Virus record (IMG/VR): IMGVR_UViG_3300036781_000275
Span: 1 to 64,000 of that record
Length of the DNA stretch: 64,000 nt
Source of the DNA: a virus
Strand: one strand, 5' to 3'
Shown: one piece after another, positions 27,149 to 63,711 of the stretch
Layout of the letters: each line of letters starts with the position of its first letter
How positions within the stretch are numbered: position 1 is the stretch's first letter
The notes under the pieces: generated by a model
Told to the model about the DNA's origin: nothing
The model's database searches: none
Seen by the model: only the letters and a program-made list of their open reading frames with translations
Program-made: the position numbers and the translations under genes

Positions 27149-27556
27149 ATTCGGGCAGGTCCGCGTCGTCGCGGCCCTCGTACGGCAGTACCCACGCCTG
27201 TTCGAGCTGATCGAGCAACGCGAGCGTTTGCAGCGGTGACAACCGCCGGATCTGCTCTGAGAGCTGGTCACGCAGCGTGGTCAGCGGCTGATCGACGTCG
27301 AGATTGCTCACGTGCGCCCACAACAGCCGCGGATCAATCACGGTTCCCTTCAGGGCCTTCGCGAGAAACTCGACCTCGCCGGCCGTTACGCCGAGCTTGG
27401 TACGCTCCTCGCGCATCGCGGTATACGCGCGCAGCAGATCGTGTTTGATCTTCGACGAGAACGCTGCGCCGCCAGCGACGCGTCGCTCCAGCTCTTCACG
27501 CAACCCGCCGCCCAGATGCACCGACGCGTTATCGCGGAGCTTCGTCTTTTCATCAT
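27147..27556 (-). CDS. putative DNA-binding regulator; apparent 1-nt frameshift after the start
   Basis: RBS GGAGAC and ATG at 27556 are out of frame with the long ORF at the AAAAG run (27547-27550). Confidence 0.45.
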
Positions 27557-27584
27557 GACTGTCTCCGCTGTTCCTCACACGCAC

Positions 27585-27613
27585 ATCGTATCAACATACG
27601 GCGTGGATCGCAA
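27585..27613 (-). promoter_or_regulatory. sigma70-like promoter without the palindromic operator
   Basis: TTGCGA-17 bp-TACGAT. Confidence 0.55.
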
Positions 27614-27637
27614 GGGCCTACGCGGCGCATACGACAA

Positions 27638-27667
27638 CGCCCCCGGATCATCGCGGATCCGGGGGCG
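27638..27667 (-). terminator. GC-rich hairpin, possible terminator
   Basis: CGCCCCCGGATC-loop-GATCCGGGGGCG; weak U-tract. Confidence 0.45.
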
Positions 27668-27702
27668 CATGGTCGGCCGTGCGTACTGCGTCCTACCGCC
27701 GC

Positions 27703-30700
27703 TCAGGGTGGCGCTGATTTCGGCGAGACACCGGTATACGTACCGACGTACCCATACTCCTCACCCATAAGCGCACGCGTCAGATCTTCGAACGCCGTGA
27801 TCCAACCTTTTGTTGCATTGCTAAGCTGATCGTAGCTGTTCATGGACTTCCTGAGCGCGCCGGCCGAGCGCCGCATAGCCCATCGCAACCGCCGACGCGT
27901 CCGATTCGCTCGCCGGCGCAACCTGACCTCGCGTCGCCGGGTCACGTGCTCGCCTTCCCGCCGTTCTGCGGCTCGAACGGCGATTCGATGCCGAGACTGA
28001 CCGGTTGAAGCGACTCGCCGAAATTGGCCTGCGACAGCCACAGCTTGCCATGCACGAGCACGTGTAGTCGCTCGCGCAGCGTGAGGCTCCAGCGTAACAC
28101 GGTGGTCCGGGCGTCCGTGTAGGCCGGCAACGGCAAGTACGGCGGCTGATTCTCCGCCCATGTCGTGTTCTGCTCGGGAAATGTGATCGGCTTCATGTTG
28201 ATGAGGGTAAGTTGTGTTTTCGCTGGAACGCGCGCTTGGCCGCGGCCGATTCGCGCTCGCCAACCTCACTCGGTGCAGTCGCCTCACGGATAGCGTCCGC
28301 GATGTCGAACAGCGCGTAAACCAGCGCCGTCGTTGCATGCGCACGGTTGTTGTCTTGATCAGTACCGGAGATGTGCGCGAGCGCGTACTCGGATCTTTTC
28401 CGAGGTGTCATCACTTCGGGGCTCCCGGCGCTGGGGTGTCCTGAGCTAATACCGCGCTGCACCACGGACAAAAGACAAAGCGTTTGCCAGTATAGCCCTT
28501 GTAGCTCTGAGGATTTCTCGCGTGGAGCAACAATGTTGGTGCGTTGAGGTGGTCGATGTTTGCGGCCCAATCTTCACAGTCGCATTTCATTCCCCCGTCC
28601 TCCCGTCTTCTGGGGCAGCACCGCAGAGCCAGTCTTTGCGTGCGCCGGCCGCGTAGTGATATGCACATAGCAATCGGCTGCCGAAGTCTTCTGCTCGGAC
28701 GCCGACGTTCTGACATCGCTCACCATCGGGGCCGATGTACCAGCCGCACGCCGTTGGGGCTATTTGCCGTTGTTCTGCGCTCATCGGCTCGCTCCGTCTT
28801 CCAGAACATCATCTGAAAAATCGGCGGCGGTTTTCATCCCCCGCGCCGCGCGAATGACTTTGTTGAACGCATCGTCGCCAAACTTCTGACGTACGGTAGC
28901 CAGAATACCCGCCGCGATTCGCGCCACATCGTTCGGCGTGCCGTGCGCCATAATCGGAGAGTCGAGCCTCCCATCAATCGCCCCGAGCAGGAACGCGCTC
29001 GCGTCATCGACCACCACCGCCCGGCGCGATTCGTCAATTCCAGTGATCACGATTTTCATACCGTGTCTCCGTCTTCCGGTCGGGGGGAACGGGCGGCGTC
29101 AATGGCAGCAAGCAAACGATCTCTGACGCCATACCGCACTGGCCTTTCCATCGCCCAATCTCTCGTGTACGTGAGCGGATCACACGGGAAGCATTGACCC
29201 GCCTTACTCACCTGCTCATTTCCTCGGCCGCATTTGTCGCACGTTCCGATCATCATACTTTCACTCTGACTGGCCCGATGAGCAGATCAAGGACGACATC
29301 AGCAACCGCGTAAAAGTCGGTGGGTCTCATGCTGACAAATTGCCGCTGAAGTTCCAACGCAATCGCATCACCGACCTGTTTTCTTGTTACCGTGGCGACA
29401 TGGCTTGCTTCAAGCGCATGCATGCTGACGTGATTCTTCGCGCCCATTGTCTGCGCAGCATCCACGAGCGCGCGAATGAAGGGCCGCAGATCATCGTCAA
29501 ACGTTGCTTGGTAATCGTGGCGGCCGTTCTCGCGTAATTCTTGGTTGAGCACGTCGAGCAGCGAGGATTCGCGACTTTCCAGCACAACGCGCCGCTTCGT
29601 GTCTTCGCTTGGCTCCTCTCGCGGGACGCTGGCGGGGGTGGTGGCGCGCTTGACGAGTTCAGCAAGCGCACGCTCCTGCGACGGTAGCAATGACTTGTCT
29701 CGCCGTAGCGCCCATTCTCCATTGCGGACAATCGCCGCCAATTCATCGGCCTTCATTCTGTCGTCAATCATCGTGGCTCAGTAGGATCGGGTTTGACAAG
29801 CGCCTCTCCGCACCAATCGAAGGCCGTGGTCTTCGGCCAGTACGCTTCGACGTACGCCGGTTGAGGAGCGTAGCGATGGCATTTGCCCGTCGTGTGGCCA
29901 GTCTTCGGCTGTTCTTTCGTAGGGTCTTTCTCCCAGAAACAGCAATTGGCGCACCGCACTTTTTCGGTCATTCCGGCTTCTCCTGCGCTGAATGCCGCCG
30001 CATGATTTCTCGCAGATCACCCTGCAAGCGCCGACCATGACATTGACGGCAAATGGCCTTGTTCGGCGATCCGCTCTCTCTGTCAGGGACTTCCTTGGGA
30101 TTCTTGCCGCACAACTTGCACGGCTTGGTGGGTTTGGTCATTCCGGCTTCTCCGGGGTGGCCGAACTTGGATAGGGCGTTGCAGCAGCGACATGCAAACG
30201 ATGCAATGCGTTCTTGAATGCAGTCATCGGCAGACCGTTCTGCTCGCTCTCCATGATCGGCAGGAAATACGAGGCGGCGGCAAGCTGCTTGAAAATGTCC
30301 CCCAGTTCAGACCGAGGAATCAGCAGCGCCGAGACGTCCGCGCAACAGTCATCACACGTACACCGGAGATGGCCCTCGTCGTCGTTGGGCGGATTCACGG
30401 CGAGTTCTTCGCGCAGCACCTTCGCAATCGTGCTCACGTTATTTGGTCTCCGGGGTGGCGGCAAAGAGAGCGAGGACGTCATCACGACGCAGCCATTCTG
30501 TATCGTCAGCGCCAATGTCTGCTGGCAACGCTTCTACCTGCTCTCGCGTGACTCCGTCCACTCGGGGGGCGGCGGTCCGAAGTGGCATGTGCAGCGTTTC
30601 GCTATCGACCGCCACGTTCGCTTGTTCACGCGCGACGATTGGCGCTACCTGCTTCACGGCTTGCTCGATCATGTCATCAACGCCCCACGGTTTCTCCGGC

Positions 30701-50790: not shown

Positions 50791-51242
50791 CGAGTCTTGC
50801 GCCGGAACTGGGTGGGGCGGCCGGGTCGTTTCGTCGGTTCCTTGCGGTATCCCTTGCTCGCCCATCGCGCGACGAGCTGCCGGCAATGATCAAGGCTGTT
50901 CGATATTCTCCCGCCCAACATGACCGCATGCGTGGCGTGCAGGTCATCGAACGTGCCACAGATCGCGAGCACGCCCGCGTCGAGCCGCGCGACGAGAAAC
51001 TCGTGCTGCGCGCGCGTCAACTGTCCCTTGGCGGCCTTCGCTTCCCACCACAGCGCGTGACCGTACTTGTCGTAATAGCGATCGCTCACGCCTTTCGTCA
51101 TGCCAATCACGTGCATCGGGAGCGAGAACTCAACGCGCGAGAACCCGGCACGCAACATGTAGTCGTCGCCGAGCTGCTCCTCGTCGGTCTCGCTGCGCAC
51201 GCGTGGTTTCGCGAAGTCGGGGAGCGGTGGCATGTCGCTCAT
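50787..51242 (-). CDS. VRR-NUC nuclease
   Basis: GVSD...WWEAKAAKGQLT.AQ.EF. Confidence 0.75.
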   Translation of the reverse strand: MSDMPPLPDFAKPRVRSETDEEQLGDDYMLRAGFSRVEFSLPMHVIGMTKGVSDRYYDKYGHALWWEAKAAKGQLTRAQHEFLVARLDAGVLAICGTFDDLHATHAVMLGGRISNSLDHCRQLVARWASKGYRKEPTKRPGRPTQFRRKTR

Positions 51243-51778
51243 TTCAGGCATACGGTCGCTCCCTTTCGCCATGGGGCGCGTTCTCTGAACCGAGCCAGCT
51301 CGGTCTCGCTGACAGCCCACCCGTCGTCGTTCGCAGCCATGACTTCTACCTGCACCTTCACCTCATCGCGTAGCCGATCTAACTGCATCTTCATGCGATA
51401 GTCAGTCTTAAATCGCGACGTAACTCGCTCATCGAGCGCTTTGATCGCCGCCGTCATGGCCGGTTTCACGCCTGTTCCCATTAGCTCGGCGAAACGCACA
51501 GGATCGCGTGACGTCATGCCTGCGAATGCGTACGCCGCATAGTCGCATCGCGGCATGTCCCGTGCAAGAACGCTGAACCTGACTTCGCGCCACTGATCGA
51601 GCGTGACGGAATCGCGCAGCGGCGTGAAACCCGGCACGAGCAGCCGCCGTGGCGCGGCGCGCTCCAGCGCTTCGAGCAAGCTTGGCACTACCAGCAGTCC
51701 AGCGCCGACCGCGGCCGTGATCTTCGCCGACGTCAGCAGGAATCTGCGCCGGCTCTGCACGAGATCAAATTCTCTCAT
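51239..51778 (-). CDS. hypothetical protein with twin-arginine-like N-terminus
   Basis: SRRRFLLTSAK plus hydrophobic stretch. Confidence 0.5.
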   Translation of the reverse strand: MREFDLVQSRRRFLLTSAKITAAVGAGLLVVPSLLEALERAAPRRLLVPGFTPLRDSVTLDQWREVRFSVLARDMPRCDYAAYAFAGMTSRDPVRFAELMGTGVKPAMTAAIKALDERVTSRFKTDYRMKMQLDRLRDEVKVQVEVMAANDDGWAVSETELARFRERAPWRKGATVCLK

Positions 51779-51880: not shown

Positions 51881-52168
51881 TCAAATGCCACGGATCGAGC
51901 GGAGGACTCGCCGATCTTTCCGTTCGGCGTCAAACAGGTCCACTTCTCGCTGCACATTGAGCCAGAACTGAACTGACGTGTTCAGCGCCTTCGATAGGCG
52001 TAGCGCCACCGCCGCCGTGACCTGTGCGCGGCCTCGCACGATGTTGCGAACACGATGAGCTGGAAACTTCATGCGGGCCGCTAAGCCTTTCTGCGTTAGA
52101 TCAGGATGTTCGCGAATGTAATTGCCGAGCACTTCGCCCGGCGTTGGCGGCCGTACCGGTCTTCTCAT
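51881..52168 (-). CDS. higA: HigA-family antitoxin (orphan)
   Basis: PPTPGEVL, LTQ..LA, IVRGRA.VT..VALRLSKALNTS.QFWLNVQ. Confidence 0.85.
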   Translation of the reverse strand: MRRPVRPPTPGEVLGNYIREHPDLTQKGLAARMKFPAHRVRNIVRGRAQVTAAVALRLSKALNTSVQFWLNVQREVDLFDAERKDRRVLRSIRGI

Positions 52169-52193
52169 GTCGCGCTCCACGGAGTGTGTTCTG

Positions 52194-52664
52194 TCATTCG
52201 CCGCGCACGTCGAGCGGCTTGCCGTCCCGCATGTACCGGAAGAATCTGACACGGACCATCACATCATCACCGAGCCCCGGCCGATAATTCCCCTCATGCA
52301 AAAAGTCGTCCGCTACCGCAACCCACCCTGCGCGATCTCGCCGATTCTCCAGCAACACACTCTCGATATACGCGGCCGTCTCCGTGCTCGGCTGCCGCGT
52401 CCCACCAGCGTCAACCGTGAATTGCACTCGTGATTTGCGAATCACGAGATCGCGTTCTTCGAGTTCACGCGTCGCGCCCAGCAGCGCTAAGTGCTCGACA
52501 TCGCACGTCAGCAACTGCACGCTGCGCGTCATGATGATCTCCGCGAGCTGCGACGCCAGCATCGTAAACTGAATGAAATCAGCGCGGCTCTGTTCGTCCT
52601 GCACGCTGAATACGATGCTGCCGCCGGCGGTCGCGTGAATGGATACGTTCGTGAGAAGTCTCAT
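52194..52664 (-). CDS. hypothetical protein
   Basis: ATG just after variant operator 52676-52689. Confidence 0.5.
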   Translation of the reverse strand: MRLLTNVSIHATAGGSIVFSVQDEQSRADFIQFTMLASQLAEIIMTRSVQLLTCDVEHLALLGATRELEERDLVIRKSRVQFTVDAGGTRQPSTETAAYIESVLLENRRDRAGWVAVADDFLHEGNYRPGLGDDVMVRVRFFRYMRDGKPLDVRGE

Positions 52665-52787
52665 GGCACGCAAACCTAACACATGTGAGGACAGGCACGG
52701 AAGGCTTCGAGGATCTCCACATTCCCACGCGGTTGTTCTGGTAGTGCCAGTTAGTCGACACACCGGAACCAGTAACTGTAATAGTAG

Positions 52788-52971
52788 CGTGGATAAGCGT
52801 GGATAACTCTGTAACTGATTGCGGTTGCTAACGTTGACGCTGATTTACTTCTGTGGAAATCGTGTGCATAACGTGTCGACAAGTCCGGTTGTCCACTCAC
52901 CGTGAGGCGCGCGCCGCGGGCGAGGTGGAGAACGGGAGCGGATCCACAAGTAATCCACCGAGTTGTCAACA
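52788..52971. promoter_or_regulatory. DnaA-box cluster, putative replication origin
   Basis: ~10 TT(A/G)TNCAC(A)-like 9-mers in a lower-GC intergenic gap. Confidence 0.7.
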
Positions 52972-60402: not shown

Positions 60403-61221
60403 CTAGTGCTTTTGATGTTCCTTCCCATCAACAACGTTGAATCCAATCGCCCAGACAAAGGGATTTGATTCCCACGAATGGCCACGCTTCGCGTTCAGCG
60501 AGTCCCAGAGCGCGGCATACGTCTTTACCGGGTTGTCGAGTACGCCCGTGTTCATGCAGTCGAAGCACGCGAGACTCGTCGGCGGCTGATCAAGATGCGT
60601 ACATCGCGTATACGGCACGCCCTCAAGAATGGCGTCGTTGAGCGTGATGTCCTGCACGCGCTGCGCGCGCACCTCGGTCACTTCGAGCGTGATCCGTGAT
60701 GCCCACCGCGGCATGAAGATCGACGGTGTTCGGCGGATCCCGTAATCTTCGGCGGCATCCCCATCTGGGCACGACGCCACGTACTGCACTACTCGGCCGT
60801 CGTCGTGCGTGGCCTCAGCATCCCGCGCAAAGTGCGCCGGCGAGATGTAGGCGGTCTCTTTGACCCAGAGCTGCGACGCCGGCGGCGTGTACGGGTCACG
60901 CCTGTCGGTGCTCGGCTTCTGATCGTAGCAGCGCGCGGGCGCAATCTTCGGCCGTAGTCGATCGACCACCCCGTCACACCCCATGGTTTCACACCATACG
61001 CAACCGTTCGCGCTCTGATGCACCGGCACGTGCAGATATTCAGCGCCGCTCCCAATGCCGTCGCGCCAAGCTCGCGCGAAATCGGCATGCGCGAAGAACT
61101 GACGGCCCCACGCGCCGAACTGCGCGTTATCTGGCGTGATGACGCGCCGCGTCTGCGTCTTCGTGCCGGCGAGAATCGCGCGCACGCTCTCTGCGCCGAA
61201 GATCATACCGCGCTCTGTCAT
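60403..61221 (-). CDS. ASCH-like phage protein
   Basis: VRAILAGTKTQTRR, LWVKET, PSIFMPRWASRITLEV, W.SNPFVW. Confidence 0.75.
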   Translation of the reverse strand: MTERGMIFGAESVRAILAGTKTQTRRVITPDNAQFGAWGRQFFAHADFARAWRDGIGSGAEYLHVPVHQSANGCVWCETMGCDGVVDRLRPKIAPARCYDQKPSTDRRDPYTPPASQLWVKETAYISPAHFARDAEATHDDGRVVQYVASCPDGDAAEDYGIRRTPSIFMPRWASRITLEVTEVRAQRVQDITLNDAILEGVPYTRCTHLDQPPTSLACFDCMNTGVLDNPVKTYAALWDSLNAKRGHSWESNPFVWAIGFNVVDGKEHQKH

Positions 61222-61579
61222 TTGTTAACGGTCTCTCCGCACGTGCTCCAACAAAACCAGTGATCGCCGTAGTCGACCCAATTGTGATTGCACTCCGCGC
61301 TATTAGGTGGCGGCCCAATGATCATCGCGACTGTCTTCTCCGCGCTACGCCAGCGCTCAGCGTCCACCTTGTCCGCCTCGGTCGCGTCAGACCGCGCCTC
61401 CTCGATCGCCACGATCAGCGCGTCGCGCCATTTCGGTAGCTCGCAGTCGTCGACGTGCTTGCCGCTGCGGCATTTACAGACGCGGGCGCGCAAGATCAGT
61501 CCCTCCACGAGCCCCGTACGGTCGAAGCGCCACGCCTCTCGTTGGCGTGGCGCGGCGACCGATTCCGCCGGCGTGTCGC

Positions 61580-61891
61580 TCACGAGCCGAGCGGTTCCAG
61601 TTCGCCGAGCGGGTTTACTTCGCTCTTCAGCTCGCCGCGCGCGTTTAGTTCGCCCACGCGTACCGGCCTGCCATCGGATGGCTTGTACTCGACGCTGCCA
61701 TCGACCGGGTGGATGTTGAAGTTTTTCGGCGCGTCGATCAGCACGAATTTCTTGGCGTAGCTCGGCGCTTCGGCCTTGCAATTGCGCAGCGCGATCTTCG
61801 CGTCTGCGCCCTGACCCCAGCAGTTCGAGCCCATGACGAGCGCCGTGCGTCCTGCCGGCGCGGTCCAGATTGCTTTCGCTGATTTCACCAT
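61580..61891 (-). CDS. hypothetical early protein
   Basis: follows operator 61942-61955 and conserved leader. Confidence 0.55.
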   Translation of the reverse strand: MVKSAKAIWTAPAGRTALVMGSNCWGQGADAKIALRNCKAEAPSYAKKFVLIDAPKNFNIHPVDGSVEYKPSDGRPVRVGELNARGELKSEVNPLGELEPLGS

Positions 61892-61974
61892 ACCGTTGTC
61901 TCCGCGTTGGAAGCGCGAGTGAATTCTCGCATATCTCTAGCCTAACAGGTGTTAGCTCGGCGCGCAAGGGCCAG

Positions 61975-62403
61975 CAGAAAAGCCGCCCGGTGCGCGATAA
62001 TCAGTCGCGTCCGGTACGGCTTTCACTTCAGGCGTTCACGGTTTCCAATATGACCGCGCATGGCCGGGCACACAAGAGAACGAGCCGCTTAGGGACGAAT
62101 CCCCGCGGCTCGTTGCGCGACAGAAGCTTAGCGCTTCCTGTAAGCCGGTCTCTTGCGGCGGCCCGGATGATTTGCGATCAAGCGCGCTCCCTCGTGAGAG
62201 TTCGTGCGTCCGTGAACCTCGCATGGTTAACGCCTCTGGCCCGAAAGCGCAACGGCCGTAGCACAACCGGGTTCAGCGCTCGCTCTTCGCTGATGGAGCC
62301 GGTGCTACGACCGTTGCAAAAGCTGACCACCTATCCTGAGCTGATCCGATGCGCTCGTCCACGCACAAGCAGGAAGAGGCCGGGGCCTTTTGTCAGTGGT
62401 CAA
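61975..62403 (-). ncRNA. candidate large structured non-coding RNA
   Basis: nested inverted repeats over ~430 nt between tRNA-Met and a terminal hairpin with U-tract; no credible ORF. Confidence 0.6.
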
Positions 62404-62404
62404 A

Positions 62405-62477
62405 GAGCAGGGACCGGACTCGAACCGGCAACCTCCGAGTTATGAGCCCGGTGCGCTACCAATTGCGCTACCCTGCG
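62405..62477 (-). tRNA. tRNA-Met(CAU), initiator-like
   Basis: cloverleaf with CTCATAA loop, GGG 5' anticodon stem, unpaired C1:U72; no encoded CCA. Confidence 0.85.
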
Positions 62478-62524
62478 ATCGTCAATCTATGCGGCTGTCT
62501 GCTGTCTCCACCAGAGCCATTCAG

Positions 62525-62980
62525 TCAGGGCGTGCGCGTGATCGTGATACCGTCGGGACCCGACGAGGTGTTCGAAAAGATGACCGACTCCGTGAGCGGA
62601 TCTTTCCGATAGCTCACGCTGGCCGGTTTGCGTGGTTTGCGACGCCACTCCACCGTGACACCGCCGTGCATGGTCGCGTACAACGCTTCGCCGTGTGCGA
62701 GCACAATGTGGCCGTCAGGATCTTCGCGGTACACCGTGATCCAATCCTGATCGAGATCGTACGCAACAACGCCACTCTTGAGTTCGCGCCCGTATCGGCG
62801 GAACACGATGTCCCAGTCTTTCGTGCCGAAGAAATTCTCGTCTTTCCTGACGTCGAGCTTGCGCGGAATTTCCCGCTCAGGCTGCGCGAACAGTTTCGTG
62901 ATCGGCGAGAGCGCGACCACACCGACCGCCGTAGCGAGTGCCGTGGCGTTGCGGAAGAAACTGCGACGGTCTTGATCCAT
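62525..62980 (-). CDS. hypothetical protein with twin-arginine-like N-terminus
   Basis: DRRSFFRNA plus hydrophobic stretch. Confidence 0.5.
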   Translation of the reverse strand: MDQDRRSFFRNATALATAVGVVALSPITKLFAQPEREIPRKLDVRKDENFFGTKDWDIVFRRYGRELKSGVVAYDLDQDWITVYREDPDGHIVLAHGEALYATMHGGVTVEWRRKPRKPASVSYRKDPLTESVIFSNTSSGPDGITITRTP

Positions 62981-63003
62981 GGCCGTACGGTAGCGCCAGC
63001 CAG

Positions 63004-63711
63004 CTAGAACCGCAACGTCAGCATGCGGAGCTGCACGGGGCCTTGCTTGACCGTGATGTTCGTGGCGCTCGGCTTCTGATCATGCACGGCCAGATAGACG
63101 ATCGTACCGACCGCTACCGCGTGCCCCACCCAGTGCCATGCCGTGCCGGCCGACGCCTGTTTCTTCAGTACCGCGATCTCTCGGTTCCCGTCGTCGACGA
63201 GCCCTTGCAAGGCAAGCCGGGCGCGTTCACCGGCCGCGATCGTACTGGAGTCGTTCGCGATCAAATGGCCCGCCTCGACCAGCCGCGCCTGTAGCGCCAC
63301 GTCCCTCTCGGCGTGTGCGTGTTCTGCCGAGTCACTCGCCGCAACCAGTAACTCTACGTGGTCTCGGAGCTGCGCGGCCGTGCTCGCGGAATCGTGCGCC
63401 GCGGCCAGTGCGGCATCGCGTTCGTTGGCGAGTTGCCTCGTGACGCTATCGGCGTGTGCCGTGGTGCGGTATAGGGCGGCCGTATCGGCACGGTAGATGG
63501 TCCGCGCCTTCGCGTTCACGATGGCCGCCTTGACGGCCGTGTCGACGGCAGCGCGGGTCTCTTTCCCGTGCACGGCTCTGATCGAATCGAGCTGCGCCGT
63601 GAGCAGCTTCCGCGCGCCGACGTCGCGCTCGTGTACGACCAGCATGGTGCCCACGGCCACCGCGACCGTGAGCACCACCGCTGCAACAACCAGCTTCGCT
63701 CCGCTCGTCAC
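63004..63711 (-). CDS. membrane-anchored coiled-coil protein (spanin-like)
   Basis: N-terminal TM, long Ala-rich coiled coil, C-terminal hydrophobic segment. Confidence 0.5.
   Translation of the reverse strand: MTSGAKLVVAAVVLTVAVAVGTMLVVHERDVGARKLLTAQLDSIRAVHGKETRAAVDTAVKAAIVNAKARTIYRADTAALYRTTAHADSVTRQLANERDAALAAAHDSASTAAQLRDHVELLVAASDSAEHAHAERDVALQARLVEAGHLIANDSSTIAAGERARLALQGLVDDGNREIAVLKKQASAGTAWHWVGHAVAVGTIVYLAVHDQKPSATNITVKQGPVQLRMLTLRF

Follow-up and report, generated by a model that had tools for sequence, protein, structure and literature searches.

What is the stretch of some 430 nt that directly follows a methionine tRNA gene (tRNA-Met) in a gene-dense phage genome, and could it be made as an RNA in its own right? 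The question is raised by the virus record IMGVR_UViG_3300036781_000275 of IMG/VR, whose bases 1-64000 form the window analysed here (64,000 nt; positions are counted from its first base and run on into the rest of the record). The record measures 73,323 bp, carries direct terminal repeats and is rated complete. A first-pass annotation, made from the letters and open reading frames (ORFs) of this window, had proposed that the minus strand next to tRNA-Met specifies a large structured non-coding RNA (ncRNA), co-transcribed with the tRNA and possibly a new class released by tRNA processing. We find that the stretch in question (61975-62404, minus strand, starting directly 3' of tRNA-Met) is operon-terminal and non-coding, has an exceptionally stable fold and is bounded by the tRNA and a terminator-like hairpin. 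From these features we infer that the stretch is transcribed, processed and stable, and likewise any role in trans. The reading that we tentatively favour, with a confidence somewhat short of even, is that of a discrete, structured, tRNA-linked phage RNA released by tRNA processing.

A non-coding gap with an exceptionally stable fold

Periodicity of the GC content at third codon positions (GC3) is flat over 61905-62385, and the codon positions are equal in GC from about 62400 to 61900, with both flanks of the gap showing the strong GC3 signal of the genome. Among the 23 low-periodicity stretches of the 73-kb genome this one is the longest, at 480 nt. A codon-usage log-likelihood ratio (LLR), trained on 21 long genes, is negative for all five ORFs in the gap (-0.12 to -0.37 per codon); real genes overall score +0.12 to +0.40, the five small neighbouring genes +0.21 to +0.33, and 16 spurious antisense frames have a mean of -0.17. 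One of these ORFs, of 191 aa on the plus strand (61870-62445; LLR -0.19), spans the gap and runs antisense through the tRNA gene, and a 76-aa ORF of the minus strand scores -0.12. PHROGs holds no match for any of the five, and at E <= 1 Pfam gives a single sub-threshold match, that of the 191-aa ORF to zf-C2H2_FBX41 (E 0.064, 13.2 bits, cut-off 24). The gap stretch is non-coding; flat periodicity and five negative ratios bear out the earlier view that no credible ORF lies in it.

The fold of this stretch is unusually stable by several yardsticks. The first-pass annotation had suggested a comparison with dinucleotide shuffles, and in this comparison the native minus strand beats 100 of 100, with a minimum free energy (MFE) of -196.2 kcal/mol against -170.1 +/- 6.2 kcal/mol (z = -4.18). 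In a second test, the native values were reached by 0 of 60 shuffles on any of the five structure measures, namely MFE, ensemble diversity (45; shuffles 99 +/- 33), positional entropy (0.43; shuffles 0.96), number of MFE pairs with a probability above 0.9 (92; shuffles 47 +/- 23) and longest helix (16; shuffles 9.5 +/- 1.4). Because real sequence is poorly represented by a shuffled null, genomic windows were folded as well: 341 minus-strand windows of 430 nt were taken across the whole genome and their MFE was regressed on GC. The two windows of the candidate rank first and second of the 341 by GC-adjusted stability (residual z -3.16 and -2.79), ahead of the next-ranked window at 27521-27950 (residual z -2.55).

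The predicted fold comprises three domains, D1 to D3, and a terminal hairpin (Table 1). All nine helices listed by the first-pass annotation are present in their places, and eight of them have mean pair probabilities of 0.92-0.99 in the partition function. The ninth, AGGCG/CGCCT, is found in the sequence, yet its mean pair probability is 0.01, because the MFE fold pairs the neighbouring CGGGC/GCCUG instead. The closing helix of D1 starts 2 nt past the 3' end of the tRNA and has a pair probability of 0.99, with a poorly defined domain interior. D2 (tested as RNA nt 86-158) is a hairpin with a stem of 17 contiguous pairs, two of them G.U, an interior U.G pair being among the features of the stem. 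Its pair probabilities lie at 0.94-0.99, its z-score is -5.5 (0 of 200 shuffles as stable), and it shares first place in uninterrupted helix length with at least one other of the 130 minus-strand hairpins of the genome that have at least 11 contiguous pairs; its 3' side shows a weak U-run only.

D3 is closed by the long-range helix GUUCACGG/CCGUGAAC (62217-62210 with 62041-62034), in which the helices CCGGGC/GCCCGG, CAAGAGA/UCUCUUG and AACGAGCCGC/GCGGCUCGUU are nested, the last of them capped by the hairpin GGGGA-UUCG-UCCCU. The domain has three side hairpins and pair probabilities of 0.92-0.98, and a run of RNAalifold on this one sequence yields 75 pairs with 3 branch points. The terminal hairpin (RNA nt 379-430) reaches -25.9 kcal/mol and z = -4.3 (0 of 200 shuffles), with a pair probability of 0.95, and UUUUCUG follows it directly, so that the AAAGCCG/CGGCTTT hairpin with U-tract described before stands. 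Judging from hairpin and U-run, it is probably an intrinsic terminator that sets the 3' end of the unit, with termination predicted at this point.

Unit boundaries and a proposed route of release

The minus strand carries nearly all genes of the phage, including all neighbours of the candidate RNA. The tRNA gene on its 5' side is complete and not a 3' fragment. Reading its arms from the sequence, we find a C1/U72 mismatch, discriminator C, no encoded CCA and an anticodon stem with G29-G31 and one G.U, features that are compatible with Met, fMet (initiator/elongator) or Ile2. As annotated, the RNA lies directly downstream: the tRNA ends at 62405 and the two share the transcribed strand. Upstream, 47 nt separate the stop codon of a 151-aa gene from tRNA-Met.

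On the other side, the 85 nt directly after the terminal hairpin hold a module that recurs in the genome. It consists of a -35 element TTGCGC (61967-61962), the palindrome CTAACACCTGTTAG (61955-61942), a -10 element TAGGCT (61944-61939) and a shared leader, CTTCCAACGCGGAGACAACG, at 61913-61894, just ahead of the ATG at 61891. In general, TTGCGC or TTGACA comes first and TAGGCT second, separated by a spacer of 17 nt in which the palindrome CTAACAnnTGTTAG lies; at most minus-strand module sites the leader follows 25-40 nt past TAGGCT and 2-4 nt before the ATG. When no more than 2 mismatches are allowed, the core 15-mer is found at 10 sites of the minus and 8 of the plus strand. Two of the latter (42238 and 46302) are palindromic echoes of minus-strand sites, and the other six are probably further copies of the palindrome. 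From this arrangement, hexamer assignment included, we infer a promoter of the sigma-70 type whose spacer contains an operator, together with a shared 5' leader. The modules look like co-regulated phage promoters with an operator for a regulator, and as a practical by-product they help in mapping the transcription units of the phage.

The downstream 103-aa gene thus has its own putative promoter after the hairpin, which argues that the structured RNA is not its leader. A scan of 61000-63200 found no sigma-70-like site, none between the 151-aa gene and the tRNA among them, and the minus strand bears no module copy between 65744 and 61955. Together with the 47-nt gap between stop codon and tRNA, these results make the simplest unit one that runs from upstream genes through the 151-aa gene, tRNA-Met and the RNA to the terminator. 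Co-transcription with the tRNA, as had been suggested, is therefore plausible as a prediction from sequence, with no promoter-like site or module copy intervening.

We propose the following route for such a transcript, whose minus-strand order would be 151-aa gene, tRNA-Met, structured RNA of ~425 nt and intrinsic terminator. RNase P would cut at the 5' side of the tRNA, and an RNase Z- or RNase E-type cut would be made on its 3' side; a cut of this type is expected because no CCA is encoded. In many bacteria an unencoded CCA goes together with RNase Z-type cleavage after the discriminator. The 3' cut would free the downstream RNA as a separate molecule of ~425 nt, protected at both ends: near its new 5' end by a helix that begins after 2 nt, and at its 3' end by the terminator hairpin. 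A 5'-proximal helix and a 3' terminator hairpin are both known to slow RNA decay. The freed RNA could then persist, folded and stable, as a molecule made up of D1, the hairpin D2 and the branched domain D3.

Table 1. The candidate RNA, its domains and the annotated features around it
Feature	Position	Strand	Description or source
D1	62323..62403 (RNA nt 2-82)	minus	9-bp closing helix, GACCAC/GUGGUC core
D2, long hairpin	62249..62317 (RNA nt 88-156)	minus	16-17 bp stem, inner UCAGCG/CGCUGA helix, 9-nt loop
D3, multi-branched domain	62025..62248 (RNA nt 157-380, 224 nt)	minus	MFE fold
Terminal hairpin and UUUUCUG	61975..62024 (hairpin 62024-61978)	minus	18 pairs, two bulges, AAAGCCG...CGGCUUU
tRNA gene, CAT anticodon	62405-62477	minus	ARAGORN; Rfam RF00005 tRNA model, 61.6 bits
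Upstream gene, 151-aa ORFan, twin-arginine-like N-terminus	62525..62980	minus	ORF list; codon LLR +0.25
Putative promoter/leader module of next operon	61892..61967	minus	repeat in genome
Downstream gene, 103-aa ORFan, first after promoter module	61580..61891	minus	ORF list; codon LLR +0.33
Core 15-mer sites	65744 (weak), 61955, 60393, 54782, 49937, 49631, 46315, 42251, 36192, 35822	minus	
Core 15-mer sites	21721, 26833, 33959, 42238, 46302, 47548, 50731, 52676	plus	

Known RNAs, relatives and competing explanations

Large phage RNAs beside tRNA genes are the obvious points of reference, and the first-pass annotation had likened the stretch to GOLLD and ROOL. Rfam, as a published paper states, holds profiles of both. 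A cmscan search of 61800-62600 (801 bases) with all 4227 models of Rfam 15 at E <= 10 returned, besides the tRNA, only two weak matches at the site of the tRNA, and a scan of the whole window at the gathering threshold returned 2 tRNAs only. The stretch thus matches no family, GOLLD and ROOL included, and as far as the models reach, this result excludes GOLLD, ROOL, tmRNA, RNase P, 6S and T-box RNAs as well as group I/II introns and small ribozymes. What remains of the likeness is the context, that is, a phage location beside a tRNA.

According to published accounts, GOLLD and ROOL are large phage or prophage RNAs that are often found near tRNA islands. One GOLLD representative (env-38) lies downstream of a Met-tRNA, GOLLD expression rises in lysis, and the family, many of whose members exceed 800 nt, is defined by covariation across many members. 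The candidate resembles GOLLD in being phage-encoded, adjacent to a tRNA gene, large, highly structured and of unknown function; it differs in its length (~430 nt), in matching no family model and in having no known relative. ROOL is described as an RNA of about 581 nt with six multistem junctions as well as three pseudoknots. Like ROOL, which occurs in phages and prophages and often near tRNA genes, the candidate is multi-branched, but at 430 nt it is shorter, and its fold, as predicted with tools restricted to nested pairs, has fewer junctions (3 branch points in D3). Phage T4 provides a further comparison with RNAC and RNAD, two small RNAs reported to be made from its tRNA region, with roles given as unknown. 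These too are non-coding, come from a phage tRNA region and are presumably freed by tRNA processing, whereas T4 has a cluster of tRNA genes and the present site a single one. RNAC and RNAD are also much shorter than the candidate.

In Escherichia coli, the sponge 3'ETS-leuZ is a functional RNA that RNase cleavage produces from the trailer of a tRNA precursor. The candidate would share this source, a tRNA trailer, but RNAs of the 3'ETS type are short, single-hairpin, base-pairing sponges, and the stretch described here has ~425 nt and long helices. By analogy, the candidate has the context of tRNA-linked phage RNAs and probably their mode of production, and falls outside any described family. 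That it represents a stand-alone phage RNA of ~425 nt, the first member of a further large tRNA-linked family in an undersampled lineage of soil phages and with a late role like that of GOLLD or ROOL, is possible, although we hold this more doubtful than release as such. RNAs of the GOLLD and ROOL type beside phage tRNAs are among the least understood in biology, and each independent case of a tRNA followed by a big folded RNA and a terminator would strengthen the notion of tRNA processing as a general launch route for ncRNAs. Being a single sequence with thermodynamic support only, the present case is a candidate and not a discovery. A further role, that of an antisense RNA to the shared leader and ribosome binding site of the module, was rejected: the duplex reaches -13.9 kcal/mol, weaker than the mean of 200 shuffles (-16.7) and that of 170 genomic windows (-15.9).

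The search for homologues, which the first-pass annotation had named as a way to covariation, extended over phage, viral, metagenome and genome sequences and yielded none. Distant-mode blastn against 50,697 GenBank phage records gave no match to the stretch. A conserved neighbour gene (PHROG 874, 272 aa) led to 97 loci, 20 of them from viral, 66 from metagenome and 11 from genome collections, and every one distant (some 25-40% identical along the entire length). In the neighbourhoods of this gene, nhmmer with the RNA found nothing at E <= 1, neither in 21 nor subsequently in 91 loci, and blastn matches to the PHROG 874 loci were of 12-24 nt only. A 16-mer stem arm occurs in 4 viral loci, which we count as chance because the second arm is missing and the arm lies within apparent coding sequence. 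Exact patterns fared no better: 0 matches in viral contigs for a 27-mer of the tRNA and for RNA words of 18 and 21 nt, 0 in genome contigs for the two-arm D2 pattern, and 0 in 185,579 species genomes for 36-mers of tRNA-Met and tRNA-Lys. For D3, a covariance model was made by entering its one sequence two times, so that it contains no covariation information. This model recovered only itself (280.7 bits) in 483,854 bases, the next match having 11.3 bits (E 0.81); none of the PHROG 874 loci resembled the RNA by it, and of 5 whole viral records it matched none.

The portal protein of the phage has no relative in viral contigs. For its large terminase there is one, 54-56% identical, and the contig that carries it (39 kb) belongs to a Gemmatimonadaceae metagenome-assembled genome (MAG). 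This contig matches 6 of the minus-strand ORFs of the phage (the terminase and five others) and belongs to the closest phage found; it carries neither a tRNA nor the RNA, as 0 of the 44 tRNA matches and 0 of the 17 weak DNA matches in the MAG fall on it. A published screen (PMC10690425), which reports 10,006 viral candidate RNAs, required at least three sequences per motif.

Several observations weigh against a released RNA. No homologue turned up in any collection searched, and since the sequence is an orphan, a new RNA class is unproven. The stretch was found in one sequencing run only, a soil metagenome (DNA) that is possibly its source, and no RNA run containing it is listed. The fold signal is uneven, most of it being carried by the D2 hairpin and the terminal hairpin: D3 is moderately significant (z = -2.64, 1 of 100 shuffles as stable), and D1 (RNA nt 1-83) is not significant (z = -1.35, 19 of 200 as stable), so that the description as highly structured over ~430 nt holds for D2, D3 and the terminal hairpin and fails for D1. 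A simple consensus terminator scan passed over the terminal hairpin, and the two bulges in it may be the reason. The plus strand, too, outfolds its shuffles (-182.6 kcal/mol, z = -3.06, 1 of 100 as stable). The minus-strand fold is 13.6 kcal/mol better, and it contains 8 interior G.U pairs and 1 A.C 1x1 mismatch, compared with 3 and 3 in the plus-strand MFE, counts that are small and come from folds each optimised on its own strand; energy and counts together speak more for an RNA transcribed from this strand than for a palindrome at the DNA level. Finally, both flanking genes are ORFans, for which reason we read the region as a fast-changing accessory one, where unselected DNA could persist.

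The unevenness of the signal lends itself above all to an explanation in cis, whereby the stretch would be a 3' untranslated region (UTR) or terminator whose D2 and terminal hairpins stop transcription and shield the mRNA or tRNA precursor from 3' exonucleases, the rest being spacer. This is the most serious competitor, albeit an unlikely one in our estimate. The two hairpins dominate (z = -5.5 and -4.3) and D1 contributes nothing significant; the position, exactly at the operon end and just before a promoter module, is where a GC-rich hairpin with a U-run belongs in an ordinary terminator or 3' UTR, and another strong intergenic hairpin exists at 27637-27668. However, where genes are packed as densely as in this phage, a terminator region of 430 nt is long, and the stretch is the longest non-coding one of the genome. 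Unlike in an ordinary terminator, ~380 nt of extra well-defined structure lie between tRNA and terminal hairpin; D3, with four nested near-perfect helices closed over ~180 nt, beats 99 of 100 shuffles, and the U-run of D2 is weak.

Rather improbable is the notion of unselected spacer or decayed DNA, left by a lost gene or an insertion, with hairpins that arose partly by chance and partly as an ordinary terminator. It would fit the lack of homologues, the ORFan neighbours, a D1 that behaves like its shuffles and the lack of natural variants across the region in the one containing run, where the source contig stands alone. It sits poorly with the first rank among 341 windows in GC-adjusted stability and with 0 of 60 shuffles being as well defined, and the only residue of protein similarity is the sub-threshold Pfam match mentioned above, PHROGs giving none. 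A decayed tRNA array was rejected as well, given that ARAGORN at its default, 90% and 80% settings finds tRNA-Met only and that four further calls, on both strands, appear at 70% alone.

A slim chance is left to a 5' leader or antitermination RNA, comparable to HK022 put or to nut sites, that would control read-through into the downstream replication genes. A structured RNA with a terminator does lie upstream of co-oriented genes, but the gene that follows has its own promoter/leader module after the terminator, no promoter-like site is seen inside or before the RNA, and no regulatory family of Rfam matches. Slimmer still is that of an element acting at the DNA level, such as an origin of replication, a site for attachment or recombination at the tRNA gene, a packaging site or a set of operators. 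The inverted repeats are visible on the plus strand too and the replication module adjoins, whereas the region shows no iterons, significant direct repeats or AT-rich dip, the arms of the repeats differ from operators in being nested and in lying 16-170 nt from each other, and a cluster of words at ~52780-52960, which we take to be DnaA-box-like by their consensus, looks more like an origin. A retron or a tRNA attachment site was rejected likewise, as tyrosine integrase (PF00589) and reverse transcriptase (PF00078) have 0 matches each in the 73-kb genome and the tRNA gene is complete. Protein coding, lastly, is hardly credible: the 191-aa and 76-aa ORFs exist, but they score like spurious antisense frames in a stretch of flat periodicity, the former is antisense through the tRNA gene, and neither has a PHROG match nor, apart from the sub-threshold one of the 191-aa ORF, a match in Pfam.

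Genomic setting and side observations

The record represents a tailed phage, with a portal protein (PHROG 145), a large terminase (PHROGs 2 and 979) and, at 66-70 kb, a Dit-like tail protein and a spanin-like protein; its GC content is 59-68%. A replication and recombination block at 54-60 kb encodes a helicase, an AAA_24/Sak4-like ATPase and a DNA methylase, and the candidate region borders this replication module. Regarding the two ORFan neighbours, the 151-aa protein has no match in Pfam or PHROGs and none in IMG/VR, and among 5.77 billion proteins it finds itself alone. The 103-aa protein likewise finds itself alone in that collection, with one weak match of 21 residues in IMG/VR.

Once GC is accounted for, the region at 27560-27950 comes second in stability within the genome (z = -2.74 against shuffles). 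It holds the intergenic hairpin already mentioned, a perfect one of 13 bp, which is most likely an ordinary terminator.

Among the PHROG 874 loci with a tRNA upstream, one alone (L012) has a long gap after its tRNAs. On this viral contig of 31% GC, tRNA-Met and tRNA-Arg precede a gap of ~535 nt (1943-2477), in which a 49-aa ORF is the only one. The gap has a GC content of ~43% compared with ~31% around it, many of its loops look GNRA-like by eye, and its fold has z = -1.95 (3 of 100 shuffles as stable). It has no Rfam match, and its similarity to GenBank phages extends over no more than 47 nt. This gap may hold an independent tRNA-linked structured RNA at the same relative position. A low-periodicity stretch of 480 nt at another locus (L003) was rejected as an RNA, since by eye it looks like a divergent pair of helix-turn-helix genes.

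Two small proteins with N-termini resembling twin-arginine signals each adjoin a tRNA gene (51239-51778 and 62525-62980). The first, of 179 aa and just after tRNA-Lys, matches PF10399, a twin-arginine (TAT) signal model, with E 1.9e-5, and the second, the 151-aa protein just before tRNA-Met, shows weak similarity to it (E 0.035). Directly upstream of tRNA-Lys, positions 51881-52252 encode a 123-aa helix-turn-helix protein (PF01381, E 6e-6), preceded by a 189-aa ORF that has no family match and overlaps its start. Upstream of the genes that surround tRNA-Lys, the low-periodicity stretch at ~52780-52960 contains the presumed DnaA-box-like words TTATCCACG and GTGGAT, twice each. More origin-like than the region of the candidate RNA, this stretch may represent an origin, or else a promoter under DnaA control.

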